From: Thermoplasmata archaeon | GTDB taxonomy: Archaea; Thermoplasmatota; Thermoplasmata; Lutacidiplasmatales; UBA184 | Assembly: GCA_035622275.1 (NCBI GenBank) | Contig: DASPVQ010000020.1 | Span: 86,067 to 150,066 of the forward strand | DNA: 64,000 nt | Reading direction: 5' to 3' | Shown here: positions 7,296-26,092 of the stretch, one piece after another | Position numbering within the stretch: the stretch's first letter is position 1 | Layout of the letters: the number at the start of each line of letters is the position of its first letter | Translations under genes and position numbers: made by a program | Notes under the pieces: model-generated | What the model was told of the DNA's origin: nothing | Seen by the model: only the letters and a program-made list of their open reading frames with translations | Databases searched by the model: none

Positions 7296-8357
7296 TCAGG
7301 ACCGCCGGCGCACGAGGCGGTCGGCGATCTCCCGGACGAGCGGCTTGGCCGACGGCGGGATCGACCGTGTCCGATCGAGCCGGGCGAGGGCGCGGGCGGT
7401 GAGCGCGGCGATGCGCGTCTCGGAGCAGGCCAGACTCCCGGTCGCCCGTATCACCTCGCGCGCCCGCTCGACGTCCTCCGGCGTCGCGTTGGGGTTGCCG
7501 AGGACGCGCGAGAGCCGTCCGCGGTCCGCCTCGCTCGCCGCGGCCCAGGCCCTGACGAGCAGCAGCGTGCGCTTGCCCTCGGGCAGATCGTTCGGGCTCT
7601 TGCCGGTCTCCTCCGCGTCGAAACCGGCGCCGAGGACATCGTCGCGCAACTGGAACGCGATCCCGAGATCGAGCCCGATCGACTCCAGGTCGCCGAGGCG
7701 ATCCGGCCGCATCCCTCCGAGGAGCGCGCCGATCCTCAGCGGCGCCGCCACGGTGTAGACCGCGGACTTTAGGCGGTGGACGTTCAGCACATCGTCCTCG
7801 GTCACGGACCCCGGGTCGAGCGTCGCGTTGCGGATGTCGAGGAGCTGGCCGTACGCGGTCCAGCGCGTCATGCGAACGTACTCGCCGAGGGCGGCCAGGC
7901 GGGCGGGGAGGGGGGCGCGCACGGAAAGCAGCGCGTCGACGGTGAACGGCTCCTCGAGGTCGCCGAGCGTGATGCCGATGCCCACCCCGTACTCCTCGCT
8001 CGATCCGACACGGTGCTCGCGCCGGTGCATCGCCTCGGCCGCCCGGTGCACGCTGGGCCCACCGCGTCGCTGCTCCGCGTGGTCGATGATGTCGTCATGC
8101 ACCAGCATCCAGCTCTGGAAGTGCTCGAGGGCCGCGGCCGCCGGCAGCGCCGGCGTCGGCGGGCGGCGCGTCGCGAGATGGTAGCCGGCGAGCACCAGGA
8201 TCGCGCGGAAGCGCTTGCCACCGCGCAGCGTGAACTCCCGGTTCACGTCGAGGTAGGGCCGTACCGTCTCGGGCGCCGCGCTCCGGGCCCGGGCGTACGA
8301 TCGCGCGAGTTCACGCTCGAGCGGTCGGAGGTACCGGTAGAGACCGTTCAGATCCAC
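7296..8357 (-). CDS. idsA: Polyprenyl (geranylgeranyl) diphosphate synthase
   Basis: The first DDxxD motif (LVHDDIIDHAE) and the second DD motif (FQLRDDVLG) are present. It is 353 aa. Confidence 0.8.
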   Translation of the reverse strand: MDLNGLYRYLRPLERELARSYARARSAAPETVRPYLDVNREFTLRGGKRFRAILVLAGYHLATRRPPTPALPAAAALEHFQSWMLVHDDIIDHAEQRRGGPSVHRAAEAMHRREHRVGSSEEYGVGIGITLGDLEEPFTVDALLSVRAPLPARLAALGEYVRMTRWTAYGQLLDIRNATLDPGSVTEDDVLNVHRLKSAVYTVAAPLRIGALLGGMRPDRLGDLESIGLDLGIAFQLRDDVLGAGFDAEETGKSPNDLPEGKRTLLLVRAWAAASEADRGRLSRVLGNPNATPEDVERAREVIRATGSLACSETRIAALTARALARLDRTRSIPPSAKPLVREIADRLVRRRS

Positions 8358-9564: not shown

Positions 9565-10467
9565 ATGCGGATCGTCTCCGTTCTCCCCAGCGCGACCGAG
9601 ATCGTCTTCGTCCTGGGGCACGGCGCGGAACTGGTCGGCCGCAGCGCGGAATGCGACTATCCCCCCGAGGTCGCTTCGCTCCCGGTCGTCATGCGGCCGC
9701 GGACTCTGGACCTCGACCGCTCCTCCGCGGAGATCGACCGACGCGTGCAGGACGTCCGCGGGCGGGACGAGAGCCTCTACGATCTCGACATCGACCGCCT
9801 AAGCGAACTCGCGCCGGACCTGATTCTGACGCAGGACCTGTGTCGGGTCTGCTCGGTGACCGATGCCGAGGTCGCGAGCGCGTGCGCGCGGGCGGACGTG
9901 GCGCCGAGGATCGTCTCGCTCACCCCGAGGACGCTCGCGGGCGTCTTTGCGTCGATCGAGGCGGTCGGTCGAGCGCTGGAGGATCCCGCACCGGCGCGAG
10001 CGCTGACCCGACGCCTGCGGGAGCGCTGCGCCCGGCCCCCGGGTCCCGCCGTCGCTCGGGTCGCGGTGGTGGAGTGGCTCGACCCCCCGATCGTGGCCGG
10101 GCTGTGGACACCGGACATCGTGCGGGCGGCGGGCGGGGAGTCGATCGGCCCGCGGTCCGGCCGGCCGGGCGAGCGCACGGGCTGGGCTCGGCTCTCCTCC
10201 GATCCCCCCGACCTCCTCGTGCTGTCTCCCTGCAGTTTCTCGGTCGATCGCTCGCGTCGCGAGCTCGAGGCCCCCGCGCTGCGTCGCGCCGTCGCCGGGG
10301 TGCGGGCCCCGCTCGGGACGTTCATCGCGGACGAGGCCTACTTCTCCCGACCGGGGCCGCGCCTGGCCGACGGGGTCGAGCTCGTGCGGCACCTGCTCGC
10401 GCGAGCCCCCTGGGACCCGCCGATGCCGGTGGCGCCGTACGCGGCCGGGCCGGAGGCGGCGGCATGA
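9565..10467 (+). CDS. BtuF/TroA-like (class III) substrate-binding protein lacking a signal peptide
   Basis: The N-terminus RIVSVLPSATEIVFVLG is the BtuF-like mature start. ILTQDLC and VVEWLDPPIVAGLWTPDIV blocks are also present. There is no hydrophobic leader or lipobox. Confidence 0.6.
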   Translation: MRIVSVLPSATEIVFVLGHGAELVGRSAECDYPPEVASLPVVMRPRTLDLDRSSAEIDRRVQDVRGRDESLYDLDIDRLSELAPDLILTQDLCRVCSVTDAEVASACARADVAPRIVSLTPRTLAGVFASIEAVGRALEDPAPARALTRRLRERCARPPGPAVARVAVVEWLDPPIVAGLWTPDIVRAAGGESIGPRSGRPGERTGWARLSSDPPDLLVLSPCSFSVDRSRRELEAPALRRAVAGVRAPLGTFIADEAYFSRPGPRLADGVELVRHLLARAPWDPPMPVAPYAAGPEAAA

Positions 10468-11162
10468 GCTCGGGGATCCCCTACACGTACAGTTGGACGG
10501 CGACCGAGCCGGCCCGGGGGCGGATCACGACCTCCCGCCAGGAGGTGCTTCAGATCAGCGTCGCGTTCGCGGTCCTCACGCTCGACTTCGTGCTGATCCT
10601 GTTCGTGGGCGGGGTGTTCACCGGGAGCAGCGTCAGTTCGATCGTCGCCGTGCCGCTCGACCTCGTCGGGTTCGCCGCCCTCGTCGCGCTCACCGCGTTC
10701 GTCTGCCACGAGCTCGCCCACAAGATCTCGGCGCAACGCCACGGCTACTGGGCCGAGTTCCGCTGGTCGCCGATCGGACTGGCGTTCTCGGTGGTCACCG
10801 CCTACCTAGGACTCCTGTTCGCCGCGCCGGGAGCGACCGTGATCGGCGGCATGGGCAACGTCCGCGACTGGGGCCGGACGAGCCTCGCCGGGCCGCTCAC
10901 GAACCTGTCGTTCGCGGCCGCGTTCTACGCGGGAGCGACCGCGGCGTGGTTCTTCGCGAGCCCGCTCTACTTCTGGCTGCTGCTGCTGGCCTGGTTCAAC
11001 TCGTTCTTCGGCGTGTTCAACCTCCTGCCCTTCGGCCCCCTCGACGGCGCGAAGGTCCTGCGCTGGAGCAGCGCGATCTGGGTCGTCGCCTTCGTCGTCG
11101 GCGTTGCGGCGGCCGTCGTCTCGTATCTCGCCGTAGTCGTGGTCGGACGGCCGGTCCTGTAG
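10464..11162 (+). CDS. Site-2 protease family (peptidase M50) membrane metalloprotease
   Basis: The HELAHK (HExxH) motif sits in a TM helix. The NLLPFGPLDG (LDG) motif is present. It is multi-pass, and its ATG overlaps the upstream stop (ATGA). Confidence 0.7.
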   Translation: MSSGIPYTYSWTATEPARGRITTSRQEVLQISVAFAVLTLDFVLILFVGGVFTGSSVSSIVAVPLDLVGFAALVALTAFVCHELAHKISAQRHGYWAEFRWSPIGLAFSVVTAYLGLLFAAPGATVIGGMGNVRDWGRTSLAGPLTNLSFAAAFYAGATAAWFFASPLYFWLLLLAWFNSFFGVFNLLPFGPLDGAKVLRWSSAIWVVAFVVGVAAAVVSYLAVVVVGRPVL

Positions 11163-11171
11163 GAGGAGGTC

Positions 11172-12158
11172 GTGTCCCGTCCGCGCCTCCGGGAGCTCGG
11201 GCGCGATCGCCAGCTCATCGACACTGACTTCCGCGACACCGAGGGGCTCGTCGCCGCCTATCTCGTGCCGGAGGAGGAGGGTTGGATGCTCATCGAGACC
11301 GGCCCCACGAGCTGCCGGGAGGCGCTGCTCGCCGGCATCGATCGGGCCGGGGTCGAGCGCGCGGCGATCCGGCACGTCCTGGTCACCCACATCCACCTCG
11401 ACCATGCCGGCGGCGTCGGGGCGCTGGCCGACGCGCTCCCGCGCGCGACGTTCTATGCGCACGAGCTCGGCGTCCCGCACCTGATCGATCCGACGCGCCT
11501 GATCGCGAGCGCCCGGCGGGCCTGGGGCGCGGCGGCGGACCCCCTGTGGGGACCGATCGTCCCGGTCGCGGCCCCGAGGATCCAGGCCCTGCGCGGCGGG
11601 GAGCGCTTTCCCGTCCGGGGCGGGGAGGTCCGCGTGCTCGCGACGCCCGGGCACGCCCGGCATCACCTCGCCTTCTTCGATAGCGCGATCCGCGGGGTGT
11701 TCACGGGTGACGGGGCGGGCGTGCGCCTGGAGCACAGCCCGCGCGTGCGCCCGGCGGTGCCCCCTCCGGATCTCGATCTCGAGCAGCTCTTCGCGAGCGT
11801 CGAGGCGATGCGGGGCCTCGACCCGGTGCTGGTGCTCTACAGTCACTTCGGACCGAGTCCCGACGGTGCCGCGGACCTCGCGCGCTATCGCGGCATCGTG
11901 GAGGCCTGGCGGGACGTGGCGCTCGCCGCGGCGCGGGAGCGGGCCGACCCGGACTACGTCGCCGAGCGGCTGCGCGAGTTCGACCGACGGGGCGTCGAGC
12001 CGGCGGGCGCGGCGCGCGCGGGGACCGACGACCGCGCGGTCCTGGTCTCGGGATATGACCTGGCCGCGCGCGGATTTCTGCGCTACTTCGAGACCCGCGG
12101 GGTGGTGACGGTCCCGGGCGAGCGCGAGGGATCCGGTCCGGTCAGTCCACGAGCGTGA
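11172..12158 (+). CDS. MBL-fold metallo-hydrolase
   Basis: The metallo-beta-lactamase motif HVLVTHIHLDHAGG is present. It is 328 aa. Confidence 0.7.
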   Translation: MSRPRLRELGRDRQLIDTDFRDTEGLVAAYLVPEEEGWMLIETGPTSCREALLAGIDRAGVERAAIRHVLVTHIHLDHAGGVGALADALPRATFYAHELGVPHLIDPTRLIASARRAWGAAADPLWGPIVPVAAPRIQALRGGERFPVRGGEVRVLATPGHARHHLAFFDSAIRGVFTGDGAGVRLEHSPRVRPAVPPPDLDLEQLFASVEAMRGLDPVLVLYSHFGPSPDGAADLARYRGIVEAWRDVALAAARERADPDYVAERLREFDRRGVEPAGAARAGTDDRAVLVSGYDLAARGFLRYFETRGVVTVPGEREGSGPVSPRA

Positions 12159-13554
12159 CGAGGTTGGTCGGTCGCCCCTCGACGGGATAGCCCGCGGTCA
12201 GCACGATCGGGCCCGGACCGGCGAACGAAGTCGAGTCCACCAGCGCCGCGACGTGGTCCCGGAGCTCGATCAGATTGCGGTGCGCGGGCACCGGGAGGGT
12301 CCGCACGCCGCGCACGAGCGCGAGACGGCGTCGGGCCGGCGCGGAGTGCGAGAGCGCGACCACCGGCGCGGTGGGTCGCAGGGCCGCCACGGTCCGCGCG
12401 GTCCGGCCGGAGTGCGTCGGCGTCGCGATCGCCCGCGCCCGCACTCCCTCGGCCAGCGTGACCGCCGCCGCCGCCACCGAGCGCTCGCTCGGCGCGCCCG
12501 GGGGCGTCGCCCGCAACAGCTCGCGCAGCCCTCGCGCGTCGTAGGCCGGCTCGGTCGCCTCGGCGATCCGGGCGAGCCAGCGGACCGCTTCGACCGGAAA
12601 TTCCCCGACCGCGCTCTCCTCGCTCAGCATCACCGCGTCGGCACCGTCGAGGACGGCGTTCGCGACGTCCGTCGCCTCTGCGCGCGTCGGCCGCGGAGAG
12701 TGGATCATGCTGAGCAGCATCTGCGTCGCCACGATCACGAACTTGCCGGCGACGTTCGCCTTGCGGACGAGCCGCTTCTGCTCGAGGGCGAGCCGCTCGA
12801 GCGGCACCTCGATGCCAAGGTCGCCGCGCGCCACCATGATCCCGTCGGCGGCGGACAGGATCCCGTCGATCTCGTCGAGCGCGTCGCGCCGCTCGATCTT
12901 GGCGATCAGACCGACCTCCCGGCCCCCGGCCTGGTGGTCGAGCCATCGGCGCGCGCGGACCACGTCGGAGGCGTCCCGGACGAACGAGAGGGCGACGAAG
13001 TCGGTGCCGCCGCGCAATCCGATCTGTGCGTCGTGCCGATCCTTCGGCCCGAAGACTTCGACGCGAAGATGGGCGCGGGGAAGATAGATGCCGGCGTGAC
13101 CGCTCACCGTTCCGCCGCTGATGACCCGGGTCTCGATCGCCCCGCGCCGGACGCGCTCGACGCGCAGCTCGACGACTCCATCGCCGAGGAGCACGGGATC
13201 GCCGGGCCGGGCCGCCCGGACGAACGACGGCAGCTGGACCCCGACCCGGCGACCGTCCCCCGGGCGGGAATCGGCGTCCAACCGCAACGACTGCCCGGGC
13301 TCGAGCGATATCGCCGGAGCGGCGAGCGCCCCGATGCGGATCTTCGGCCCTTGGACGTCCGCGACGATGGCCACGTCGCGCCCCGCCTGGCGGGCCGCCT
13401 CGCGCATCCGCCGCAGCGTGGCGCGATGCTCGGCGTCGGTCCCGTGCGAGAAATTGAGCCGAAAGCCGTCGGTCCCCGCCCGCAGGAGTTCCCGCAGCCG
13501 AGCCGGCCGATCGGATGCGGGCCCCACGGTAGCGAGGATCTTGGTCTTGCGCAC
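12142..13554 (-). CDS. pyk: Pyruvate kinase
   Basis: The N-terminus RKTKILATVGPAS and FRLNFSHG match pyruvate kinase. The start is taken at the GTG (V) codon 13554-13552, because the upstream part of the listed ORF would run antisense across the tRNA-Gln gene. Confidence 0.85.
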   Translation of the reverse strand: MRKTKILATVGPASDRPARLRELLRAGTDGFRLNFSHGTDAEHRATLRRMREAARQAGRDVAIVADVQGPKIRIGALAAPAISLEPGQSLRLDADSRPGDGRRVGVQLPSFVRAARPGDPVLLGDGVVELRVERVRRGAIETRVISGGTVSGHAGIYLPRAHLRVEVFGPKDRHDAQIGLRGGTDFVALSFVRDASDVVRARRWLDHQAGGREVGLIAKIERRDALDEIDGILSAADGIMVARGDLGIEVPLERLALEQKRLVRKANVAGKFVIVATQMLLSMIHSPRPTRAEATDVANAVLDGADAVMLSEESAVGEFPVEAVRWLARIAEATEPAYDARGLRELLRATPPGAPSERSVAAAAVTLAEGVRARAIATPTHSGRTARTVAALRPTAPVVALSHSAPARRRLALVRGVRTLPVPAHRNLIELRDHVAALVDSTSFAGPGPIVLTAGYPVEGRPTNLVTLVD

Positions 13555-13638: not shown

Positions 13639-13711
13639 AGCCCCGTGGTGTAGCGGCCAAGCATGCTGGCCTTTGGAGCCGGCGACAGCGGTTCGAATCC
13701 GCTCGGGGCTA
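13639..13711 (+). tRNA. tRNA-Gln (anticodon UUG)
   Basis: A cloverleaf was folded by hand. The acceptor AGCCCCG pairs with CGGGGCU. The anticodon stem is CUGGC/GCCGG and the anticodon loop is CUUUGGA. The T-arm is AGCGG-UUCGAAU-CCGCU. CCA is not encoded. An AT-rich box TTTAGTA lies at about -29. Confidence 0.85.
13694..13711 (+). repeat. Direct repeat copy 1 (tRNA-Gln 3' end, att-like core CGAATCCGCTCGGGGCTA)
   Basis: This 18-mer recurs identically at 16179-16196. Its first 16 nt also recur at 18068-18083. Confidence 0.7.
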
Positions 13712-13745
13712 TAATTATAATAATTGAGGGGCCCTAGGTCCGGCG

Positions 13746-13967
13746 ATGGCAACCGACCGGATGACCTCGATTTCCATCCATGCGTCGACGCTGAGGATGC
13801 TCCAGCCCTTCAAGAAGGGGGACATGACCTGGGACGACGTACTCATCGATTTCATCGAGGAGCATGTCCCGAAGGAGTTCGTCCGCGCGATGATCCGGGA
13901 GGCGGAGAAGGGCCCGGGCATCCCGTTCGATCAGGTGTACCAGGAGCACGTTCGGCGGAGGGGTTAA
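13746..13967 (+). CDS. Ribbon-helix-helix antitoxin-like protein
   Basis: It is 73 aa. The N-terminal beta-strand plus helices (TSISIHASTLRML...WDDVLIDFIEE) fit an RHH/CopG fold. It ends 4 nt upstream of the toxin gene. Confidence 0.45.
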   Translation: MATDRMTSISIHASTLRMLQPFKKGDMTWDDVLIDFIEEHVPKEFVRAMIREAEKGPGIPFDQVYQEHVRRRG

Positions 13968-13970
13968 CGC

Positions 13971-14255
13971 GTGCCCGTCGTGGACATGAGCCACGAGGCG
14001 AGGCGACAGTTCTTGCTGCTCCCCCCAGAAATCGCCGACCGGTTCAAGGAGCTCGCGGACCATCTCAGGGAGAACCCCCACCGACTCCCTCCTTGGTGTG
14101 AGGTGAAGTCCATCGGTCGAGAGGGCGGAAAGGAGGTCTTTCGAGCACGTGTGGGCGAGTATCGCGCGTCCTACGTGTTCGATGGGGAGGTCATTCGATT
14201 CACACGATTCCGCTTACGGAAACACATGGGCTATTCCTCGCTTCCGAAGTCGTAG
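13971..14255 (+). CDS. RelE/ParE-family toxin
   Basis: It is 94 aa and basic. The stretch VGEYRASYVFDGEVIRFTRFRLRKH resembles the RelE/ParE core. It forms an operon with the upstream RHH gene. Confidence 0.55.
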   Translation: MPVVDMSHEARRQFLLLPPEIADRFKELADHLRENPHRLPPWCEVKSIGREGGKEVFRARVGEYRASYVFDGEVIRFTRFRLRKHMGYSSLPKS

Positions 14256-14407
14256 CGAACATCGCCTCCAATCACTCGCCCGGGACCAAAGTCACCTCCC
14301 GTTCCCCAGGATCTCAGAGTCAGTGGCGCAGCCGGGGTCGCGACCGAACCGCTGACCCCAAACGCGGGCGTCCGAGCCAGAGGTCTGAGGGCGTCGCCCA
14401 ACTGGCC

Positions 14408-14800
14408 CTAAATCGCTTTGCGCCGGATGATTCCTTGACAGAGCCCCACAAGGTGGCCCTCAGGATCCGTGAAGTAGGCGAACGCGACTTTTCCTCGACC
14501 CTTCGACGAGGGACGCTTGTCGGGGAAGGCTGTTGGGTTTCCGACCCGCTTCCCACCGAGCCGCTCGACCTCACGAAGAGCCGCCTCGAAGTCTGGGACC
14601 TCAACGAAGAAGGTCAGATGGCCCCCGTTCCCAGTCGGATCTGCTCCCAGTCCCCCGCCAATCCCGCGGGATGCCGCCTCGGTGACTCCGTAGTCCGCGC
14701 CTGGAGCGACATCGGCCGCCTTCCACCCGAAGAGGTCGCCGTAGAAGGTTCTGAGACGCTGCCCACTCTTTCCCGTTACCTCGAACCACGCAACGGGCAT
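14408..14800 (-). CDS. VOC (glyoxalase/bleomycin-resistance/dioxygenase) family protein
   Basis: The VOC N-terminal strand MPVAWFEVTGKSGQRLRTFYGDLFGWKA and the C-terminus AYFTDPEGHLVGL are present. The start is taken at the internal ATG 14800. Confidence 0.65.
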   Translation of the reverse strand: MPVAWFEVTGKSGQRLRTFYGDLFGWKAADVAPGADYGVTEAASRGIGGGLGADPTGNGGHLTFFVEVPDFEAALREVERLGGKRVGNPTAFPDKRPSSKGRGKVAFAYFTDPEGHLVGLCQGIIRRKAI

Positions 14801-14829
14801 CGGAAGATCATTCTCTGCTCTCATCGGTT

Positions 14830-15312
14830 CTATACGGCACCGCCCTTGCCGGTCTCGAGATAGTTCTTCATGCTGCCCATTAGGTAGGTCCAGGCCCCAT
14901 CGCATGGGCCGAAGCAGGCGCATTTGGGTGTCAGACCCGCGTGGAGGAAGCGGAGTTCGGAGCGGCTGGCGCCTTTGGAGCCGATCTGGAAAAGGATCTT
15001 CGTCCCAATGAGCTCCTTCTTTTCGGACTGGTCAACGACCTTCCACTCGACCCTCGCCGGCCGCGTCGCCTTCACTAGGCTGAGCGTCCACACGTCGTTC
15101 GGGAATTTCAGGACCAGCTTGCTACCTTCCTTGTCCGAGCCGTCGATGTTCTTGCACCACCACCCGCGCAACCCGCCGGCGGTCGAGACGGTCTCGAAGA
15201 CGTCATTCGCCGAAGCGTCAACTTCGAGCGTCCGTGTGACTCCTGCAGGGGGTACAACGTCCACGTGCTCGACCTCGGTACTCGCCGTCATCGAACGGGC
15301 TATGGAATCCAT
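14830..15312 (-). CDS. SRPBCC (AHSA1/polyketide-cyclase-like) domain protein
   Basis: It is 160 aa with an alpha/beta grip pattern (GGLRGWWCKNIDG...ELRFLHAGL). The start may instead be the ATG at 15291. Confidence 0.55.
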   Translation of the reverse strand: MDSIARSMTASTEVEHVDVVPPAGVTRTLEVDASANDVFETVSTAGGLRGWWCKNIDGSDKEGSKLVLKFPNDVWTLSLVKATRPARVEWKVVDQSEKKELIGTKILFQIGSKGASRSELRFLHAGLTPKCACFGPCDGAWTYLMGSMKNYLETGKGGAV

Positions 15313-15420
15313 ACTATTTTATTCGACTACGGCGGAAAACCATAGCGAGCTCGAGTTGAGTACTCGACAGGCTCTGAGACGGGACGCGGCCGTGACCAAA
15401 TACTTGTTATTTCATAGGTA

Positions 15421-16062
15421 GTGCGGAGACCTCCGGTGATCGTCGGCCCCCAAGCGCACAACAAGGGACAGCCAGCCCCCTACCTGCTGTTCACACGCCC
15501 CGAGGGTTCGATTGGCTGCCCTATCCGCGCGTCACTAGGCGTACTCGGCCACAAGTGGTCGTTCATTATCCTTCGAGACGTAGCGTTCCTTCCCGCTCCG
15601 ACCTTCAACCTGATTCAGCACCGTAATCCGGGCCTGACGCCCAGGGTTCTTTCTGAACGCCTAAAGGAGCTGCGTGCGACGCAGCTCATCGAGAAGGTCG
15701 CCCATCCGAGGGACGAGCGTGTGTACTTTTACAGACTCACGGACAAGGGGCGGGACGCGATACCGGTTCTCGCTTCGATGATGCAGTTCGGAATGAAGCA
15801 TCTCGCAGAGAAGGTATTCGAGGACGGCAAGCCGAGGACAATGAAGGATTGCTTCCCGGGCCTGGCGGAACGTTTTCTCGGAGAACTTTTCGACTACGCG
15901 ATCTCAGACTTCAAGTCGGGCGTGGGACCCCCAGAGGGGATTCTTCTCTCGCCTTCAACCGCCCCGAAGTTCGGCGTGGCTGTCCGTAGCGGACCTCTGG
16001 CTTCCGGGGGACCGCGGCGAAAGAGGAAGCGCTTCGTGGTCCGACCTTCCCGTCCGCCTTAG
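15421..16062 (+). CDS. HxlR-family winged-helix transcriptional regulator with a C-terminal extension
   Basis: The HxlR core CPIRASLGVLGHKWSFIILRDV...LSERLKELRATQLIEKV...YRLTDKG is present. It is 213 aa. The start is GTG. Confidence 0.65.
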   Translation: MRRPPVIVGPQAHNKGQPAPYLLFTRPEGSIGCPIRASLGVLGHKWSFIILRDVAFLPAPTFNLIQHRNPGLTPRVLSERLKELRATQLIEKVAHPRDERVYFYRLTDKGRDAIPVLASMMQFGMKHLAEKVFEDGKPRTMKDCFPGLAERFLGELFDYAISDFKSGVGPPEGILLSPSTAPKFGVAVRSGPLASGGPRRKRKRFVVRPSRPP

Positions 16063-16178
16063 CAACGAGTTCCCGCTAAGCCAATTTCATCTCGCCGTGA
16101 CCGGATCGAGCGCTTCAATCACTCCCCCAAGGGGGTGGCAGCACCGTGCTTGTATCCCATTCTGAAGAAAAATACCAG

Positions 16179-16196
16179 CGAATCCGCTCGGGGCTA
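16179..16196 (+). repeat. Direct repeat copy 2 (18/18 identical to tRNA-Gln 3' end)
   Basis: It lies in an intergenic stretch after the HxlR gene. The flanking sequence is unrelated to the tRNA body. Confidence 0.7.
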
Positions 16197-16255
16197 CCCA
16201 TTCCGGCGGGCCCGCGTGGCGCTAGCCTTTTGGGCCGAACGCTAGTCCCCCTCAG

Positions 16256-17731
16256 ATGGCGATGCGGGAACCGGCCCCGCTGGACCTGTTCGCGTCGCGA
16301 CTGATGCGTCGCTTCCGGATTCCGGGACTATCGCTCGGAATCTCGAGGAACGGCCGACCGATTTTGTCCCGGGGCTACGGCTGGCGCGACCGCGAACTTC
16401 GACGGCCCGCCTCCTCGAAGACGGTGTACGGGATCGCCTCGATCACGAAGTCGTTCACCGCGCTCGCCATACTGCGGCTCGAAGAGGAAGGACTCCTGCG
16501 GGTGACGGACCCCGTCGTGCGCCATCTTCCGGAGTTTCGGAGTCCGAATCCCCGCTGGACGGCGAAGATCTCGCTCCACCACCTCCTCACCCACTCCTCC
16601 GGAATGCCGCCGTTGGCAGGGACGTACCTCTCCCAGCTTCGTTCGCGCGCCCGCGACCCGTCCTTCGACGCGCGCTCCGTCCGGCGGGTGGGCATCGACC
16701 TTGAGGCGGGGCCGCTCGACAGCTTCGAACAACTGCTGGAGTACCTCACTACGGTGCGGTACCAACCCATCGCTCCGCCGGGCCATCAGTTCAGCTACTC
16801 GAACGAGGGGTTCATGCTGCTCGGGGCGGTGATCGAGCGCAGCGCCGGCCGCACCTACGAGAACTATCTCGACGAGCAAATCCTACGACCGTGTGGAATG
16901 CGGCACACGACCTGCGATGCCGGGATCATGCTTCGCTACCCGGAAGTCACCACCCTGTACTCACCACAACGAATCCGATCCCGCGTGCGGATGGTCCCCT
17001 CCCAGAACTGCGGCATGGCCGGGATCCTCCGACCGGCGGGTGGACTGCTGACCAATATCGAGGACCTTCTGCGCTACCTCGAGATATTCCGCACCGGAGG
17101 GAGAGCCGGCCGGGAGCGGATCCTGACCCCGAAGAGCGTGAGCAAGATGCTCCGTCCCGCCATCCCCATCGACACGGACCGTTTCTACGGCTACGGCATC
17201 GTGGTTCGACCCGCCTACCATGGTCACTTGGTCGCGTACCATGGCGGCGGGACGAAGGGCGTCTCCTCAGAGTTCGCGGTCGTTCCACGCAAGGGCATCT
17301 GCGGGGCGGTTCTGGCCAACGTGGAGCGCGTCCCGTCGTTCAACGTCCTGTTCGCGGGGATCAATCGACAGCTCGGGTTACCGATGTCGACCCCGTTCTT
17401 CGAGACGCCGTCCGTGGTCTCCCGCGCCGGTCCGCTCGCGGAGTTCGAGGGGTGGTACTGGGGCGGGGACGGCTTCAAATGCAACGTGAGGGCGGGTCGG
17501 CGCGAACTGACCCTACGTTTCTGGGAGCTCGATGGTAACACGCACGTCGTCCGCGCGGCGCCGTGCGGAACCGATCGATTCTTGATTCGGCTCTTTGGCC
17601 TTCCGTGGACCATCAGATTCGTGCGGGATGCTTCGAAGCGGGTGTCCGCGGTGTTCGTGTCGTACTGGTGGTACCGTCGCCGCACCGAGCAAGAGGTTCG
17701 ACACGGCCGACGAAACCGGTTCGCCTGGTGA
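16256..17731 (+). CDS. Serine hydrolase of the beta-lactamase / penicillin-binding-protein (class C-like) family
   Basis: The SxxK active-site motif SITKSF is present, along with YSNEGF (YxN-like) and HGG (KTG-position) motifs. It is 491 aa. Confidence 0.75.
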   Translation: MAMREPAPLDLFASRLMRRFRIPGLSLGISRNGRPILSRGYGWRDRELRRPASSKTVYGIASITKSFTALAILRLEEEGLLRVTDPVVRHLPEFRSPNPRWTAKISLHHLLTHSSGMPPLAGTYLSQLRSRARDPSFDARSVRRVGIDLEAGPLDSFEQLLEYLTTVRYQPIAPPGHQFSYSNEGFMLLGAVIERSAGRTYENYLDEQILRPCGMRHTTCDAGIMLRYPEVTTLYSPQRIRSRVRMVPSQNCGMAGILRPAGGLLTNIEDLLRYLEIFRTGGRAGRERILTPKSVSKMLRPAIPIDTDRFYGYGIVVRPAYHGHLVAYHGGGTKGVSSEFAVVPRKGICGAVLANVERVPSFNVLFAGINRQLGLPMSTPFFETPSVVSRAGPLAEFEGWYWGGDGFKCNVRAGRRELTLRFWELDGNTHVVRAAPCGTDRFLIRLFGLPWTIRFVRDASKRVSAVFVSYWWYRRRTEQEVRHGRRNRFAW

Positions 17732-18067
17732 GGGCGAAGTCCCGAGGTCCCCACGAGAACGTGACTCTCGTGCGACGGGAGTCGAAGTTCATCAGGAGGA
17801 TTCGGATCGGGCTCGATTCCGTTCCCCGTCGATGGCGGAGCACGTCCCTCGACGCGCTCCATCGACGACCTCGACCTCCCTCGCCGACCTCGCGGACGGA
17901 CCCCCCGGCGAGGTTCTTCACAGGTCCACGACACCGGCGTCTTAGGCTACCCGAGCGTGCACGACAGCACGGTCGGACGGTACGCCGAGGTGGGAACCCG
18001 CGAGCTGAAGGACGCCTTGGATTCGGCCACCGGCCTGGGGGTGTGCACCGCGATCGGCAACCGACCA

Positions 18068-18083
18068 CGAATCCGCTCGGGGC
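18068..18083 (+). repeat. Direct repeat copy 3 (16/16 identical to tRNA-Gln 3' end)
   Basis: It sits in a high-GC region with no convincing ORF. Identity ends after GGGGC. Confidence 0.6.
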
Positions 18084-18812
18084 GGTCCGAGAGCGATTTC
18101 TGCCCAGTGCCCACATGAACACAACGATCGCGGCGGCCCGGCCGTCGCTACGCCACCAAAATTCGCTCCCTGCCCGTACCTCTCTTCCACGCCGTAGCGA
18201 CTGGTCCGACCGCGTTCGGGGGTTCGAACGGGCCACCGCTCCTTTCTAGGAAAGCAGCGCCGTTACCGACTGTCCGACACGTTCGCGGAAGCGGCCACGG
18301 CGAGGACTTGGCCACGCGAGAGGCCGGTCTTCCTCGGGAGGCTCGGTCCCGATCGTTCACGCCATGCGGGACGCTTCGGGCGAAGACTTCCGGGGCGGGG
18401 TCGAAGATTAGGTCAGAGCTCGACCGGAACCAAGGGGTGGATGCCGGCAACGCGCGGGACATCCTGATCGTCGCGGGGCGAGATCGGATGGCTGGCTGCG
18501 TCCCGGACGCGCTCGCCTTCGTCGAACTCGCGCAAGCCCGAAGAGTTCGGGTCGTCGCGGCTCCTCGAGCGACCGACACCGATTCTCCGGCAAGCCGGCG
18601 GACTCCCACCCTACATCCCCGGGCCGCGGAGTTCGAGAGTGAACTGACGCCGGAAGCGGACTCGAGCCGCGATCGCGGCCATCCCGGAAGGCCGCCAGCA
18701 TACCAAGACCCGGCGCGAGCCGGGCCGATCGCGGACGATCGTTCCCGAGGCCGCCGCACGGGTCCGCAGCTCGAAGGTTCGCGCGACGCACCGCTGCTCG
18801 GAACCCAGACGG

Positions 18813-19298
18813 TCACCGACCGCGAGCGGCCCGGGATCTCGCATCGGTCGCCAGGGCTTCGTGGCGATGGGGGTGCTCGTGCCCCGTCGTTCCCCCGGCG
18901 ACGGCCGGGGTGCCGAGCGTGTATCGGCCGTAGGCGATGCCCTTGACACCCCGCAGGTCCTCAGCGGCGGCGACCACCTCGTCGCTCCTTCCCACGAGAC
19001 CGATCAGCTGCATGCACGAGCCGCCCTCGAGATGGACGTGGGAGGAGGACCGGACGTGCGTCCCCCAGCGATGCTCGGCGGCGGTGAGCCGCTGGAGGAC
19101 ATTGGGGGTGTCATGTCGGTACACGAGCAGGACGCCGGCCACCGAATCGGAACCTGGGTCGCCCAGCGAGCGTTCCGCGAGCTCCTTGCGAATGAGAGCG
19201 CGGATCGCATCCGACCGGCTACGGCAGTTCCGCTCCTTCACCCAGCTGTCCAGAAGGGCGAGGAGCTCCCGTTCGAGGGAAACGCCCAGGCGCACCAC
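18813..19298 (-). CDS. nikR: Nickel-responsive regulator NikR
   Basis: An N-terminal RHH (VVRLGVSLERELLALLDSW...RSDAIRALIR) is followed by a C-terminal ACT-like metal-binding domain with His/Cys ligands (HVHLEGGSCMQLIGL, HEHPH). The GTG start choice is approximate. Confidence 0.7.
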   Translation of the reverse strand: MVRLGVSLERELLALLDSWVKERNCRSRSDAIRALIRKELAERSLGDPGSDSVAGVLLVYRHDTPNVLQRLTAAEHRWGTHVRSSSHVHLEGGSCMQLIGLVGRSDEVVAAAEDLRGVKGIAYGRYTLGTPAVAGGTTGHEHPHRHEALATDARSRAARGR

Positions 19299-19505
19299 GT
19301 AGTCGCCCCTTCGTTGCCGCAGATGGGCCGCCGGGACGGCGACATCTCCCGCTAGCGTTCGTCGTCGCGGGTGCCTCACCGTACCGCTCCTTTCGGGGAG
19401 GCGAGCTCGACTCCGTTCATAATGGTACGGATGGGGTCCCACCCGGCGCGACGCGTGCGTGTTACGATTAAGAAATACGACCGAAGCAGTTAAGAACCGC
19501 CGCGG

Positions 19506-20675
19506 TTGGCACGCTCAGTGTCTTTTGCCTCGACCGAGATTCGGAACCCGATCGTCCTTTCCCGACAGGAGTGGGTCAAGGTCATCTTGATCTACGCCGG
19601 CATCGCCGCCGCGACCGGCGTCGGGATCTATCTTACCTTCTGGGTCGGTACCCAGTACGCGATCTTCTGGCCGCTGGGCATCCTGGCCTACACGCTGGGT
19701 CTACGGCACGGCGTGGACGCCGACCACATCTGTGCCATCGACAACACCACGCGCAAACTGATCCAGCAGGACAAGCGCCCGACCACGGTCGGGACCTGGT
19801 TCTCCCTGGGTCACTCGACCATCGTCGTCGCCATGCTGGGTCTGCTGGTCGTGGCCAGCCGATTCATCGAGAGCAACCTGCCCGCCTTCGAGGCCGACGG
19901 AGCGATCTTGGGCACGATCATCTCCGGAGCGTTCCTCTACATCATCGCGCTGATCAACTTCCTGATCTTCTGGCAGGTCTATCTCATCTACCGGGAACTC
20001 CGGACGGGCCGGCTCGACCAGAAGAAGCTGGACGAGACGCTGCTGAAGCGGGGCTTCATGAATCGCTACTTCGGCAAGCTGTTCCGATTCGTCAACGAGC
20101 CCTGGCAGATCTATCCGATCGGGGTGCTGTTCGGACTTGGCTTCGACACCGCGTCCGAGGTCGCTCTGATCGCGATCACGGTGACGACGGCCGCCCTCGC
20201 GTTCCCGCTGTGGATGGTGATGGTGCTGCCGTTCATGTTCACCTGCGGCATGGTCCTCACGGACACCACCGACGGATTCGGGATGCGCTTTGCCTACGGG
20301 TGGGCCTTCATGAAGCCGATCCGGAAGGTCTACTACAACCTCACGATGACGGTGATTTCGGTCCTCGTCGCCATCGTGATCGGGACGATCGAACTGCTCG
20401 GAGTGCTCGCCTCGGAGCTCAATCTGAGCGGGGGACCGTTCGGGTTCTGGAACACGATGAACTGGTTGAACAACTCGAATGGGCCCGGCGACATCGAGAT
20501 CTGGGGCTGGTGCGGGATTCTCATCATCGCGCTGTTCTGCGGGTGTTGGGCGGTCTCTATCGCGATCTATCGATGGAAACACATCGAGGACGTGGGGTTC
20601 GGCAAGCCCCCGACGCCGGTGAACCCGGTCGACGCCGCGCCGGAGCCGGGCACTTCCTCCTCAGAACCTGCGTGA
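19506..20675 (+). CDS. NiCoT-family nickel/cobalt transporter (HoxN/NixA-like)
   Basis: The signature HGVDADH (HX4DH) lies in TM2, and GHSTIV is present. It is multi-pass. The start codon is uncertain (TTG 19506 or GTG 19518). Confidence 0.75.
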   Translation: MARSVSFASTEIRNPIVLSRQEWVKVILIYAGIAAATGVGIYLTFWVGTQYAIFWPLGILAYTLGLRHGVDADHICAIDNTTRKLIQQDKRPTTVGTWFSLGHSTIVVAMLGLLVVASRFIESNLPAFEADGAILGTIISGAFLYIIALINFLIFWQVYLIYRELRTGRLDQKKLDETLLKRGFMNRYFGKLFRFVNEPWQIYPIGVLFGLGFDTASEVALIAITVTTAALAFPLWMVMVLPFMFTCGMVLTDTTDGFGMRFAYGWAFMKPIRKVYYNLTMTVISVLVAIVIGTIELLGVLASELNLSGGPFGFWNTMNWLNNSNGPGDIEIWGWCGILIIALFCGCWAVSIAIYRWKHIEDVGFGKPPTPVNPVDAAPEPGTSSSEPA

Positions 20676-20909
20676 GCGCGGGATCCCGGTCGAGGATCCC
20701 GGGCGGGCCCGCGGCGAACGGAGACGGGGCAGGTTCCACCGAAGGGGGGGAGCGTGTTCGGCGGCGGACGGCCGTAGGCTACTCCTTCCCTCCCACGTCG
20801 TGGCGAACCGACCCGTCGAGCGCGAGGTCCCGGACACCGACGACCCGCGTCTCCGTGGATATACGTATCCCGACAATATTTACATAGCAAGAACTCATCC
20901 ACCCGCTTC

Positions 20910-22826
20910 GTGGCGGGCGCAACCGCGGCCGTCGACCAGGTCCTCGTCGCGGACGCTTCCGATAAGCAGCTCCGCCGCGCGCTGTCGTTTCAAGATCTCT
21001 TCATGATCTCGTTCGGCGGGGTCGTTGGCTCGGGCTGGCTCTTCGCCGTCGCGGCCTCCTCGCACCTCGCGGGCCCGGCCTCCGTGGTGTCGTGGATCAT
21101 CGCGGGGATCTTCATGATCGCCATCGCCCTCTGCTTCTCCGAGACGGCTTCGGCCCTGCACAAGACGGGCCAGCTCGTGCGCGGTCCGCTCTACACCCAC
21201 GGTGGTTTCACCGGGTACATCATCGGCGCCGCCTACATCCTCGGATCGATCACGGTCCCGGCGATCGAGGCCGAGGCCGTCATCACGTATGCGAGCACCT
21301 ACGAGCCGACGTGGCTGGGTTCGAACGGGCTGATCACTCCGACCGGCCTGGTCTTCGCCGTTCTGCTCCTGGTTGGATTCTTCTTCCTGAACTACGTCGG
21401 CGTGCGCTTCCTCGGCGCCTTCAACACGGTCGTGACGTGGTGGAAGTTCATCATTCCGGTGTTGACGATCATCTTCCTGTTCACGATCTTCCACTCGACG
21501 AACTTCACCGTGTCCGGCGGGTTCATCCCGTTCGGATGGCCCGGGGTCTTCATCGCGATCCCGTCGGCCGGCATCGCATTCGCCTACCTCGGGTTCCGGG
21601 GCGCGGCGCAGTTCTCGGGCGAAGCGAAGAACCCGCAGCGCGACGCGCCGAGGGCGATCATCCTGTCGATCACCGCGGCCGTGATCCTCTACGTCCTGCT
21701 CCAGGTCGTGTTCATCGGCGCCATCAACTGGGGCGCGAACGGTCTGGCGCCGGGCGACTGGGCCGGCCTGAGCTCGGTCACGACGACGCTGTACTCGGCG
21801 CCGTTCTACACGGTCATGCAACAGGCCAGCGTCGCGCTGCTCGGCGGGTTCGCGACGATCCTCCTCATCGACGCCATCATCTCGCCGTCGGGGACCGGTT
21901 GGGTGTTCCTGGGGGAGGCGACGCGCGCGGTCTACGGAGTCGGCGCGGACGGATTCTTCCCGCGGGGCCTATTGAGCATCCAGCGCCGGACCCGGATCCC
22001 TTGGGTCGCGCTCATCGCGACGACGGTGGTCGGCGGGATCTTCATCATACCGCTGCCGTCCTGGTACCTGTTTGCCGGGTTCGTGACCGACGCCTTCACC
22101 ATCTCGCTCCTCATGGGACCGCTGACCCTCTTCGTTCTACGCTGGCACGCCCCGAACATCAAGCGGCCGTTCCAGTTGCCCGGCGCGCTGGTCGTCGGCG
22201 GCCTCGCCTTCGTCGGCGGCTCCCTCGTGATCTACTGGTCCGAGTTCGGCGGGCTCTTCTACGTCTTCTCGGTGATCTTCATGGTCCTCCCGCTGTTCTA
22301 CTTCTTCTACGCACCGCGGAACCTGGGGATCAAGCCGTCCACGGCGCTCGCGATCGGGATCGTCCAGCTGGCCGTGGTGGTGATCGACACCGTCTGGGGC
22401 TACATCAACCTCTACATCGGCAACGTCGTGTCGCTCAGCCCGACGCCCGTCACGGTCTCGAACTCGACCCTCACGATGACCTTCGCGATCTACTACGTGG
22501 TGCTCCTCCTCGCGATTTGGGTGCCCACGCTCGTGACGACGATGCTCGCCCATCCGGACGGCAGGCGCATGATGCGCGCGGGCTACTGGGTCCTGGTCCT
22601 GCTCTCGGTCGAGATGGTGCTCTCCTGGTTCTCGGTGCTCGGCACGTTCCCGTTCGGGCCGTTGAACGGCAACCCGTACATCCCGTTCCCCTACGACACG
22701 ATCGCGATGGCGATCATCGCCGCGGGCATCTACGCCTGGGGCCTCATGAGCGGCTACCGCACCAAGGACCTCGCCGAGGTCGAGGCCCTGATGGCCCGAC
22801 CCGAGGCGGACGCCGCCACGGCGTGA
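20910..22826 (+). CDS. APC-superfamily amino-acid permease
   Basis: It is 638 aa with about 12 or more TM helices. The stretch FMISFGGVVGSGWLF resembles the APC consensus. Confidence 0.8.
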   Translation: MAGATAAVDQVLVADASDKQLRRALSFQDLFMISFGGVVGSGWLFAVAASSHLAGPASVVSWIIAGIFMIAIALCFSETASALHKTGQLVRGPLYTHGGFTGYIIGAAYILGSITVPAIEAEAVITYASTYEPTWLGSNGLITPTGLVFAVLLLVGFFFLNYVGVRFLGAFNTVVTWWKFIIPVLTIIFLFTIFHSTNFTVSGGFIPFGWPGVFIAIPSAGIAFAYLGFRGAAQFSGEAKNPQRDAPRAIILSITAAVILYVLLQVVFIGAINWGANGLAPGDWAGLSSVTTTLYSAPFYTVMQQASVALLGGFATILLIDAIISPSGTGWVFLGEATRAVYGVGADGFFPRGLLSIQRRTRIPWVALIATTVVGGIFIIPLPSWYLFAGFVTDAFTISLLMGPLTLFVLRWHAPNIKRPFQLPGALVVGGLAFVGGSLVIYWSEFGGLFYVFSVIFMVLPLFYFFYAPRNLGIKPSTALAIGIVQLAVVVIDTVWGYINLYIGNVVSLSPTPVTVSNSTLTMTFAIYYVVLLLAIWVPTLVTTMLAHPDGRRMMRAGYWVLVLLSVEMVLSWFSVLGTFPFGPLNGNPYIPFPYDTIAMAIIAAGIYAWGLMSGYRTKDLAEVEALMARPEADAATA

Positions 22827-22862
22827 TCCTACTCTCGGGTTGGGCCCGGGCCGACGGGTCCC

Positions 22863-23765
22863 TCACTTCCACTGGTAGAGGGCCTGGCCGCACTTCTCAC
22901 AGACTTCCGTGTTGAAGTTCGGGTGAAAGCGCGGGTGCGTCATCCGGTGGCACCACGGACACTCGAAGCGCGGTAGCGGGAACGGAATTCCCGCGTCGTC
23001 GTGGAGCAGGTCCATCAGGATCGGCTGGGTCGATGCCGGTGGCATGCCCCGGGACGCTTCGAGCCGGTCGAGGACATGGGAGCATCCCTCGAACGCGGCG
23101 ACGATCCCGGCAACGCGCTCCGGCTCGCTCGTGGTGGGAAGGGTCAGCGTCGCCTCCGTGCCGTACACGGCGAGCGTCGGCAGGTCCCGCTCGGGGTGGG
23201 GGGAGAGGGCGGCCGCGGCGCGCAGGAACCGGTGGACCTCGGCCTCCCGGTAGACGGCCGCCATCCCGGCGTCGTAGGTGTAGACCACCCAGCGCCGGTC
23301 GAGGTCGGCGTCTCCGGTTCGGGTCCCCTTCGCGCTCCCCCGGCCCTGGCGGTACCGCTCGAGGATCCGGTCCGTGCCGACCGAGCCGCGGCTGAAGACC
23401 CGGGGCCGGATTCCGGCGTAGAGCCACGGCATCCGGTAGTGGGGCATCGCCGGTGGGTCGATGAGCCGCACCGAGGTCGTGATCCCGACCTGCATCTCGG
23501 GCGAGAAGAGCCGCGGCTCCAGGAAGCTGAGCTCCCAGAGCCGGCCGGCGGCGGGGCCCACGAGGGACGGGGGCCCGGACGGAGCGCGGCGGCCCGGCGG
23601 TGCGACGGCTCGCTCGCTACGGAAGCCCGGGAACTGGGAGGCCATGCGGGCCGACAGGCGCTTCCAGAACTCGGCGGGGACGAGCGGCGCCTCGATGTTC
23701 CGCATCCGGGCGGCGGTCGAACGGAGCCACCGACCAAAAAAGCTCCGGCTGCCCGTGGCGAGCAC
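22863..23765 (-). CDS. Hypothetical protein with C-terminal zinc ribbon
   Basis: It is 300 aa. The C-terminus carries CPWCHR...CEKCG (CxxC-x15-CxxC). No other recognisable motif was found. Confidence 0.4.
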   Translation of the reverse strand: MLATGSRSFFGRWLRSTAARMRNIEAPLVPAEFWKRLSARMASQFPGFRSERAVAPPGRRAPSGPPSLVGPAAGRLWELSFLEPRLFSPEMQVGITTSVRLIDPPAMPHYRMPWLYAGIRPRVFSRGSVGTDRILERYRQGRGSAKGTRTGDADLDRRWVVYTYDAGMAAVYREAEVHRFLRAAAALSPHPERDLPTLAVYGTEATLTLPTTSEPERVAGIVAAFEGCSHVLDRLEASRGMPPASTQPILMDLLHDDAGIPFPLPRFECPWCHRMTHPRFHPNFNTEVCEKCGQALYQWK

Positions 23766-23786
23766 GGTGCCGGCCCGAGGGCCGCC

Positions 23787-24371
23787 TCACGGCCCCGGGG
23801 GCCGGCTGATCCGGATCCTCCGGATGCGGTGGACCGCGCGGCCACGACGCTCGTCCACTTCGTGCATGGCGACTGAGAGATCGTGACCTCGGACGAGGTC
23901 GAGGAGCGGGCCGACCGATTGCGCCGGCAGGTTTCCGTAGACCGAGCCCGGACCCGCGAAGAACACATGCCGCCGCGCTTCGGCGGTCGAACGCGGGTCC
24001 GCGCCGAGGTCGTCCAGCACCAGCACGAGGCCCACGCGGGACCAGCGGCGCGTGGTGGGCGCGCCCCAGCGGTACTGGTAGGTGAAGCCGCGCGCGTCCG
24101 CGCGTAATGCGATGACCGGGTTGATGAGGCCCGTGCGCAGGCTGAGGAGGATCAACCCGATGCCGAGGACGATCAGGAGGATCGCGAGGACCTCGTCGGC
24201 GAGCGGCCCGGTCCGGGCGAGCGGGCCGACGAGGTAGCCCCCGATCCCGATGAAGGCGCTTCCGATCCCGAGCCCCGTGGCCGTCACCGGGATGCGGGTG
24301 CGAAGAAAGGCGCGCGCCTCCTCGCCGAGGTCGAGCTCGAGCTCGGGCGCCGCCACGCCACGGCCCGCCAT
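23787..24371 (-). CDS. Hypothetical membrane protein
   Basis: Two to three TM helices (GLGIGSAFIGIGGYLV, LAILLIVLGIGLILL) precede a soluble domain. The start is taken at the internal ATG. Confidence 0.35.
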   Translation of the reverse strand: MAGRGVAAPELELDLGEEARAFLRTRIPVTATGLGIGSAFIGIGGYLVGPLARTGPLADEVLAILLIVLGIGLILLSLRTGLINPVIALRADARGFTYQYRWGAPTTRRWSRVGLVLVLDDLGADPRSTAEARRHVFFAGPGSVYGNLPAQSVGPLLDLVRGHDLSVAMHEVDERRGRAVHRIRRIRISRPPGP

Positions 24372-24483
24372 CGCGCAGGGTAGGGCACTGTCCTTATCAT
24401 ACGAGCCTCGGGCATCGCCCGCCTCGAAAACCCGGACGCTCCGGGCGAATCCTAAAGGCGCCGCGGCGAGAGCCCGCGGGGGC

Positions 24484-25317: not shown

Positions 25318-25958
25318 CGAAGGACCTTGAAGGCGACGCGGAAGTTGGCGAAGCTGGACGCGACGCGCACCCAGAGCGGCACGAGCGCCTCGAGCCATCG
25401 GGCTCCCTCGATTCCTCCGACGTCGATCGCGCCCGGCCAACCGAACTGCCGGAGGATCGAGACCACCTCCGACTTCGCCGTGGGATCGTTGCCGGCGATC
25501 ATCATGTCCGGCATCTCCCCGCCGACGCTCGGGTTCGCCATGACCGAGTTCGGGACGATGTTGAAGCACTTGACGACTCGAGCTCGGGGCAGCTTGTGCT
25601 GCACCTGCTCGCCCAGCGAGTCGGTCGTCCCCACGAACAGGCCCGGAGGATTGCCCTTCGAGAAATCGAGCGGGTTCGTGACGTCGATCAGGATCTTGGC
25701 TTCGAACCGAGCGGGTCCCGCGAGGTCGATCACGGTGAGCGCGGCCGATCCGAGGCAGCACAGGACGACGAGCTCGCCGTGCGCCGCGGCCTCGGGGAAC
25801 GTCCCGAGCGCGGCGTTCGGACCGACGGAACGCTGCCAGGCGGCGAGCTCGGGCTTCCCCGGGTTCTTCGTTCCGAGGACGACGTCGTGACCCTTCTGGG
25901 CGAACGCTTGCCCGAGCGCCTGTCCCACCGCACCGCTGCCGAGGATTCCGACGCGCAT
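25314..25958 (-). CDS. NADP oxidoreductase, coenzyme F420-dependent family (Rossmann fold)
   Basis: The N-terminus is MRVGILGSGAVGQALGQAFAQKGHDVVLG (GxGxxG). It is about 214 aa. Confidence 0.6.
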   Translation of the reverse strand: MRVGILGSGAVGQALGQAFAQKGHDVVLGTKNPGKPELAAWQRSVGPNAALGTFPEAAAHGELVVLCCLGSAALTVIDLAGPARFEAKILIDVTNPLDFSKGNPPGLFVGTTDSLGEQVQHKLPRARVVKCFNIVPNSVMANPSVGGEMPDMMIAGNDPTAKSEVVSILRQFGWPGAIDVGGIEGARWLEALVPLWVRVASSFANFRVAFKVLR

Positions 25959-26092
25959 CGCCCGGTCGAGCCGAACGGCGGGGAAAGGGATTGCGGTCGC
26001 CGGAAGCCCCCGAGCGTCTCGGGGCCACCGGAGGTGAGCCTTCCGGGTGCGTTCCAACCTTATCTGGTCCGACCCTTGACCGACCGGTCAGC

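Follow-up and report, generated by a model that had tools for sequence, protein, structure and literature searches.

We examined a stretch of 64,000 nt (hereafter the window) from the genome of an uncultured soil Thermoplasmata archaeon (GenBank assembly GCA_035622275.1, contig DASPVQ010000020.1, positions 86,067 to 150,066), in which the 3' end of a tRNA-Gln gene recurs twice downstream and bounds two small islets arranged in tandem. The intact tRNA-Gln(UUG) gene occupies 13639–13711 on the plus strand (ARAGORN; 58.8 bits against the Rfam tRNA model) and represents the integration target and the attL side of the structure. It does not encode the CCA end and is the sole tRNA found by ARAGORN in the window; Rfam detects no other RNA family between 13.0 and 19.5 kb. 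The last 18 nt of the gene, CGAATCCGCTCGGGGCTA (13694–13711, plus strand), cover the 3' strands of both the T-arm and the acceptor stem, plus the discriminator base, and constitute the first copy of the attachment site (att) core. The second copy (16179–16196, plus strand) is an 18/18 match and lies where islet 1 meets islet 2. The third (18068–18083, plus strand) matches at 16 of 18 positions, the final TA of the full-length site (18068–18085) being replaced by GG. All three copies share one orientation and lie within 4.4 kb downstream of the tRNA, and a search of both strands of the 64 kb with up to four mismatches allowed reveals no fourth copy. From the base composition of the window, the numbers expected per strand are 2.4e-6 for the 18-mer and 1.1e-4 for the 16-mer, which are so small that the repeats cannot be attributed to chance. 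The similarity of both downstream copies to the tRNA breaks off abruptly at the first C of CGAATCC; therefore, they are boundary-type repeats and not duplicated tRNA genes.

Islet 1 (13712–16178, 2.47 kb) contains five genes. The first is a 73-aa open reading frame (ORF; 13746–13967, plus strand) that has no family match and is a putative antitoxin by its position 4 nt before a toxin-like gene. The latter (13971–14255, plus strand) encodes a RelE/ParE-like protein of 94 aa, a tentative toxin, since its match to Pfam ParE_toxin (E=6.4e-4) is below the family cut-off and its best PDB match (1WMI_A, hypothetical protein PHS013, E=0.085) is weak. The next two genes are on the minus strand and encode a glyoxalase/VOC-fold protein of 130 aa (14408–14800; Pfam Glyoxalase and Glyoxalase_6) and an SRPBCC (Polyketide_cyc2/AHSA1-like) protein of 160 aa (14830–15312; below the Pfam cut-off). 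Divergent from the SRPBCC gene is that of an HxlR-type winged-helix regulator of 208 aa (15436–16062, plus strand; Pfam HxlR, E=2e-15). Islet 2 (16197–18067, 1.87 kb) consists of a single gene and 336 nt of non-coding DNA. The gene (16256–17731, plus strand) encodes a beta-lactamase-fold serine hydrolase of 491 aa (NCBI HXW67393.1; Pfam Beta-lactamase, E=2e-61), a member of a large family that includes Thermoplasmata-annotated proteins, the closest non-identical relative being 60% identical. The locus of a 57%-identical homologue (P0058) has neither a tRNA nor a core nearby and is uninformative as to whether the gene behaves as a cassette. PADLOC defence models have no matches among the islet cargo. 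The DNA between the stop codon of the hydrolase and the following NikR gene (17732–18816, ~1.1 kb) has no codon-position GC signal in any frame. A 222-aa gene called within it (18148–18816, minus strand) shows flat GC1/GC2/GC3 values of 0.63/0.73/0.70 and is an ORFan, having no homologue but itself among 5.8 billion proteins; it is probably not a real gene but non-coding or decayed DNA around the third att copy.

The composition of the region changes together with the repeats. The GC content is 60.4% in islet 1 and 65.7% in islet 2, compared to 73.1% in the flank upstream of the tRNA and 70.8% in the window as a whole, so that islet 2 is nearer to the host composition than islet 1. The GC content at third codon positions (GC3) is 0.69–0.86 in islet genes versus ~0.90 in the flanking genes for the metallo-beta-lactamase-fold protein and pyruvate kinase. 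The tetranucleotide deviation computed in 2-kb windows has its maximum at 13.5–17.5 kb, where z reaches 4.4, the highest value in the window. Beyond the third core copy, the stretch 18086–27997 carries genes for NikR, a NicO nickel transporter, an amino-acid permease, two unknown proteins, a methyltransferase, an F420-type oxidoreductase and an ABC transporter. Genes at 19.5–24.4 kb have host-like GC3 values (0.89–0.94), and there is no att copy at the far end of the stretch (~27.9 kb). This stretch may be either an older, ameliorated island or a result of ordinary lineage divergence.

Neither islet harbors an integrase. Pfam finds none in any of the genes or in the six frames of the non-coding stretch (17690–18200), and a tblastn search with an integrase from a related locus (L028, see below) as the query returns nothing below E=0.03 in the window and nothing at all within 13–19 kb. 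Likewise, a hidden Markov model (HMM) built from 47 integrases of the same family identifies no remnant among all six-frame pieces of the window (best E 3.2). The original prediction, made from the letters alone, had described an exact 18-nt recurrence at 16179–16196, a 16-nt recurrence at 18068–18083, two integrase-less segments and a single beta-lactamase-fold hydrolase in the second of them, all of which our analysis confirms. It had also proposed a sliding-window check of composition across the region, and both GC content and tetranucleotide usage indeed shift where the repeats are. Two of its statements hold in part. The first segment is AT-richer as claimed, but its GC content is somewhat higher than the 55–58% given; this segment does carry regulator and stress cargo, but the addiction module attributed to it is only tentative in view of the weak toxin call.

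The significance of the repeats becomes clearer when the locus is compared with those of relatives, which were gathered from genome and metagenome collections using the flanking pyruvate kinase as the query (the loci fetched in the whole analysis, 60 in total, are denoted by L-numbers and individual proteins by P-numbers). The same arrangement as in the window is present in two further assemblies (ENA ERZ27251333 k141_564301 and Logan SRR7004343) that are 99.96–99.98% identical to it. The remaining Thermoplasmata loci, from metagenome-assembled genomes (MAGs) and metagenomes, have pyruvate kinases with 60–69% protein identity. The pyruvate kinase gene (12142–13554, minus strand; Pfam PK and PK_C) belongs to a conserved chromosomal flank: the order of M50 peptidase, metallo-beta-lactamase-fold protein, pyruvate kinase and tRNA-Gln is kept in all relatives that reach far enough, and the linkage of pyruvate kinase and tRNA-Gln is retained in nearly all of them (synteny in L003–L006, L022–L028, L045, L047, L048 and L056). 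The tRNA-Gln sequence itself is nearly identical across all relatives. Past the tRNA, gene content differs among relatives, which makes tRNA-Gln a synteny breakpoint for the whole group. None of the window genes at 13.7–27.9 kb has a homologue downstream of tRNA-Gln in any relative examined, and the distal flank has no counterpart in relatives except for L004, where synteny with the window restarts at 27998 after just 4.4 kb of unrelated genes. Further att copies in relatives amount solely to chance-level 11-mers. Since the relatives are too distant, a comparison with an empty site at the level of individual bases is unobtainable.

Several contigs are interrupted at this tRNA. Those of L003, L024 and L026 stop exactly at the tRNA-Gln 3' end (1–73), a Logan contig of the present organism (L002) begins within the tRNA at a position corresponding to 13683 of the window, and L026 and L046, which come from one metagenome, resemble two sides of a single break. 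Such breaks could reflect strain heterogeneity at a hotspot, and equally the presence of near-identical tRNAs in co-occurring species. As a near-identical tRNA of 73 nt is by itself enough to break de Bruijn assemblies, we set these breaks aside as evidence of strain polymorphism.

In many relatives, the position directly downstream of the same tRNA is taken by an integrase. In L028, the ORF that immediately follows tRNA-Gln is a tyrosine recombinase (Pfam Phage_integrase) with visible R…HxxR…Y catalytic motifs. Its homologues make up a family of 52 proteins, the full-length members of which are 425–496 aa long; those with a source name are recorded as 'site-specific integrase [Thermoplasmata archaeon]'. 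The family is distant from XerA, XerC and XerD and matches Pfam Phage_integrase and NCBIfam XerA weakly. For nine members of the family, we inspected the genomic surroundings. In L028, L043, L045/L046, L047, L048–L051, L052, L053/L054 and L056–L059, the integrase starts ~60 nt past the syntenic tRNA-Gln; in other words, an integrase lies at tRNA-Gln in no fewer than nine related loci whose upstream gene order is the same. Thus, within this lineage one integrase family targets tRNA-Gln repeatedly, and the window is an integrase-less state of the same site. The islands headed by these integrases include GmrSD, an Eco57I-type methylase/restriction gene, HEPN_AbiV, Fic, resolvases and insertion sequence (IS) elements. 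In particular, the islands in L048–L051 and L045/L046 hold defence genes (GmrSD type IV restriction, Eco57I-type methylase/restriction, HEPN_AbiV and Fic), and hence in some genomes the hotspot acts as a defence island. In L053/L054, the integrase (10001–11442) is broken up into three ORFs (218, 144 and 131 aa) in both an Illumina assembly and an NCBI MAG; a pseudogenised integrase of this kind shows decay under way at the same hotspot. A more distant family member, P0038 (45% identical; L060, 9847–21380), adjoins tRNA-Glu(CTC) at the head of an element whose cargo comprises a D5_N/DUF5906 primase-helicase, a resolvase and an IS66 transposase, indicating that the range of the family extends to other tRNAs and to elements that are plasmid- or virus-like.

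A further connection between the window and this family is provided by sequences beside the core. At the right end of islet 1, the arm motif GTATCCCATT (16152–16161, plus strand) lies 17 nt upstream of core copy 2 (−27 from the core) and occurs once in the window. The same motif at the same spacing, exactly 17 nt ahead of CGAATCC, is found in L044-B, and a version of it with a one-base insertion, GTATCCGCATT, stands 16 nt ahead of CGAATCC in L044-A. According to our own estimate, the probability of a common 10-mer at the same offset arising by chance is ~1e-6 per position. L044, the locus of integrase P0007, has no intact tRNA within 21 kb and contains two perfect cores (8125–8170 and 9923–9942). 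These enclose an integrase-less islet with a single gene for a YNCE-like beta-propeller, and the integrase begins 60 nt after the second core. Immediately after the first core comes TGGTTCGAATCCGACCGAGGCTG, which resembles the 3' end of another tRNA and hence a further att remnant. In addition, a dispersed motif CCCCC(C)GG(A/G)GGTTCGAATCC occurs in L044 in at least three copies (3790–3815, 12445–12470 and 12645–12670) with no tRNA call; possibly it is a small repeat element or a set of tRNA-like fragments. At the opposite side, an inverse motif GGGATAC/T is located at +19 to +21 from the core in most integrase-bearing left ends. Together, the two motifs imply a candidate attP layout that would read GTATCCC(ATT)-N17-core-N19-GGGATAC/T. 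Directly 3' of core copy 2 the window has CCCATT (16197–16202, plus strand), resembling left ends of the P0005/P0007 type, in which CTA is followed by TCCCATT or by TCCACATT. This similarity is only suggestive of a vestigial left end of that type, and neither the GGGATAT site nor the integrase expected after CCCATT is present at copy 2. Upstream of core copy 3, only GGTGT of the right-end motif is left, the differences being mostly of the AT-to-GC kind; such changes are consistent with a greater age of this copy, without proving it.

The repeats, the deviant composition, the lack of an integrase, the use of the same tRNA by integrase-bearing elements of relatives and the common arm motifs are all direct observations. 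They are best accounted for if site-specific integration at the 3' end of tRNA-Gln(UUG) took place twice in succession and the integrase end was lost each time, so that the locus is a scar in which fixed accessory islets have been left behind. We assign this scenario a probability of roughly 0.78. The recombinase would be the lineage-specific tyrosine integrase of 425–496 aa, and each integration would proceed through the 18-bp core corresponding to the tRNA 3' end, so that a newcomer restores the tRNA and shifts the earlier 3' end downstream. The ancestor of islet 2, carrying the serine hydrolase, would have integrated first, and its integrase and left arm would have been deleted while still abutting the tRNA, the core presumably surviving intact because selection on a working tRNA 3' end protected it. 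The ancestor of islet 1, with the RelE/ParE-like pair, glyoxalase, SRPBCC protein and HxlR regulator, might then have entered the regenerated tRNA, turning the old core into copy 2 at 16179 and placing its own right arm GTATCCCATT beside it. Finally, islet 1 would likewise have lost its integrase end, and its RelE/ParE-like pair may have helped to keep it in place. That islet 2 is the older insertion is suggested by the more degraded copy 3 and by the composition of islet 2 being closer to that of the host; copy 3 would then be the oldest and partly decayed attR. From these patterns we infer in which order the events took place, that deletions occurred and that the islets are now immobile. The one-gene islet in L044 is an independent example of such an integrase-less state. 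The central claim of the original prediction, namely site-specific integration into tRNA-Gln that produced two tandem islets devoid of integrases, is therefore supported by the integrases of relatives, the arm motifs, the absence of the cargo from relatives, the composition and the null result of the HMM search.

Several points weigh against this scenario. The right-end motif is known from three cases only (window copy 2, L044-A and L044-B), the CCCATT match is just 6 nt long, and the left flank of islet 1, next to copy 1, shows no recognisable left-end vestige after the tRNA. The GG ending of copy 3 requires two later substitutions. No empty site was found among the retrieved relatives, whose downstream regions are wholly different at the 60–69% level of pyruvate kinase identity, and no polymorphism of the locus is seen across the assemblies of this organism, as the two others match the window arrangement. 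A complete integrase-bearing element with both att sites was not recovered, its attR always being past the 10 kb fetched. Finally, the 10 kb past copy 3 are likewise absent from relatives, and the locus may thus be a broader variable hotspot.

Among other explanations, the one that fares best, although we consider it unlikely, is that the islets never had an integrase. They would then be small att-bounded cargo units, similar to satellites or to cis-mobilizable elements (CIMEs), handled by a co-resident integrase of the family and perhaps still mobilisable. This would agree with the intact cores and lack of integrases in both window islets as well as in the L044 islet, which is moreover in tandem with an integrase-bearing element, and with the preservation of the right-arm motif at copy 2. 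Copy 2 is also a perfect 18/18 match despite being outside any tRNA, but this is equally well explained if the deletion occurred while the core was still part of a functional tRNA. On the other hand, both islets lack the left-arm GGGATAC/T that most integrase-bearing elements carry, the 64 kb contain no integrase of the family, and no alternative junction is found across three assemblies (the window and the two others). It would be going further still to propose that the 18-bp core and the GTATCCCATT arm define integrase-less cassettes, stacked at tRNA-Gln by a Thermoplasmata integrase acting in trans. The tRNA would then serve as an anchor of an integron-like accretion platform, with the two window islets and the L044 islet as its examples, and these would be more than leftovers of deletion. 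We regard this idea as rather doubtful.

The scar of two integrations also has to be weighed against the possibility that the ~14 kb downstream of tRNA-Gln (13.7–27.9 kb) are simply a fast-evolving, rearranged region in which the cores originated by partial duplication of the tRNA 3' end through slippage or gene conversion. Such an explanation would need no integrase, in line with the window, and would accommodate the lack of a counterpart of the whole 13.7–27.9 kb region past the tRNA-Gln of relatives, where L004 regains synteny only from 27998. However, the copies stop at an identical base, one of them bears the arm motif of integrase-bearing elements, and in many relatives an integrase sits at this very tRNA. 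Furthermore, the compositional break coincides with the cores while genes at 19.5–24.4 kb are host-like in GC3, and no core copy is present near 27.9 kb. We therefore find this explanation very improbable. The suggestion that the repeats have nothing to do with the tRNA, being either a coincidental match or a common dispersed motif, can be practically dismissed, because, even though huge collections do yield chance matches such as the IMG/VR 18-mer in L021 (within coding sequence on a fragment of a bacterial tailed phage that has no tRNA, and treated as chance), the window has three copies only, in one orientation and clustered after the tRNA, and elsewhere among the 60 fetched loci the core is confined to tRNA-Gln genes and the L044 array.

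As a probable remnant of integration, the locus marks an entry point of strain-specific accessory genes in an uncultured soil lineage of Thermoplasmata, among them the toxin-antitoxin-like pair, a stress module of glyoxalase, SRPBCC and HxlR genes, and the serine hydrolase. Comparison with relatives further reveals tRNA-Gln(UUG), adjacent to pyruvate kinase, as a conserved integration hotspot served by a previously uncharacterised family of tyrosine integrases. The integrase family, the hotspot and the candidate attP layout should be useful for annotating mobile DNA in archaeal MAGs, although they are not surprising. The mechanism itself, that is, tRNA-targeted integration, tandem accretion and decay, is already well known, and the feature is an ordinary kind of genome feature.

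How do the islets relate to known systems? Archaeal integrated elements have short att sites (median 17 bp in Thaumarchaeota) and may form tandem arrays at a re-used att site (PMC6563490). The closest likeness is to elements that reside in tRNA genes and encode non-partitioned tyrosine integrases (pNOB8-type elements and thaumarchaeal 'cryptic integrated elements'; PMC6563490). As in those elements, the 3' part of the tRNA is targeted in the window, the direct repeats correspond to the tRNA 3' end, the att site is short (18 bp) and it has been re-used in tandem. The cargo, consisting of toxin-antitoxin-like, regulator and accessory genes, is likewise similar. Unlike in archaeal integrated elements, the window copies come without any integrase, and the integrases of relatives form a divergent clade of 425–496 aa. 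The archaeal integrated-element literature compared here contains no description of such elements from soil Thermoplasmata.

In bacteria, tandem accretion is represented by CIMEs, such as those related to ICESt1 and ICESt3 of Streptococcus thermophilus, in which segments are bounded by att sites and some are without recombination genes. CIMEs belong to bacterial conjugative systems, and their mobilisation in cis has been shown experimentally. The window islets resemble them in that they are att-bounded on both sides, have no recombination or transfer genes and form an array at one chromosomal att site, where a toxin-antitoxin module could stabilise the island. They differ from CIMEs in missing one of the two arm motifs and in that any mobility of theirs is hypothetical. 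The L044 islet, placed in tandem with an integrase-bearing element, is only suggestive of CIME-type mobilisation.

SSV-type (type I) elements share with the window a tRNA target and an archaeal host. However, the integrases of relatives are whole, start ~60 nt after the tRNA and leave the core outside the integrase ORF, and the DNA on either side of the window islets contains neither int(N) nor int(C) fragments. The split-integrase idea, for which the original prediction had suggested searching with SSV-type profiles, is thus not supported. Units of one to a few genes, arranged in tandem and separated by a recurring recombination site, are reminiscent of integron cassette arrays. In contrast to integrons, the site is a tRNA 3' end and not an attC hairpin, no IntI or attI is adjacent in the window, and the integrase of relatives heads large islands, not cassette arrays. 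The junctions show no attC-like hairpins, with folding no better than that of shuffled controls (z values of 0.57, 0.18 and −0.98). The islets have the repeats, the composition and the hotspot location of tRNA-targeted islands, and element-specific motifs beside the core are common to window copy 2 and to members of the integrase family (n=3 for the right end). Because neither islet has an integrase inside, they are classified not as autonomous elements but as remnants or derivatives of tRNA-targeted islands, distinct from both SSV-type elements and integron cassettes.

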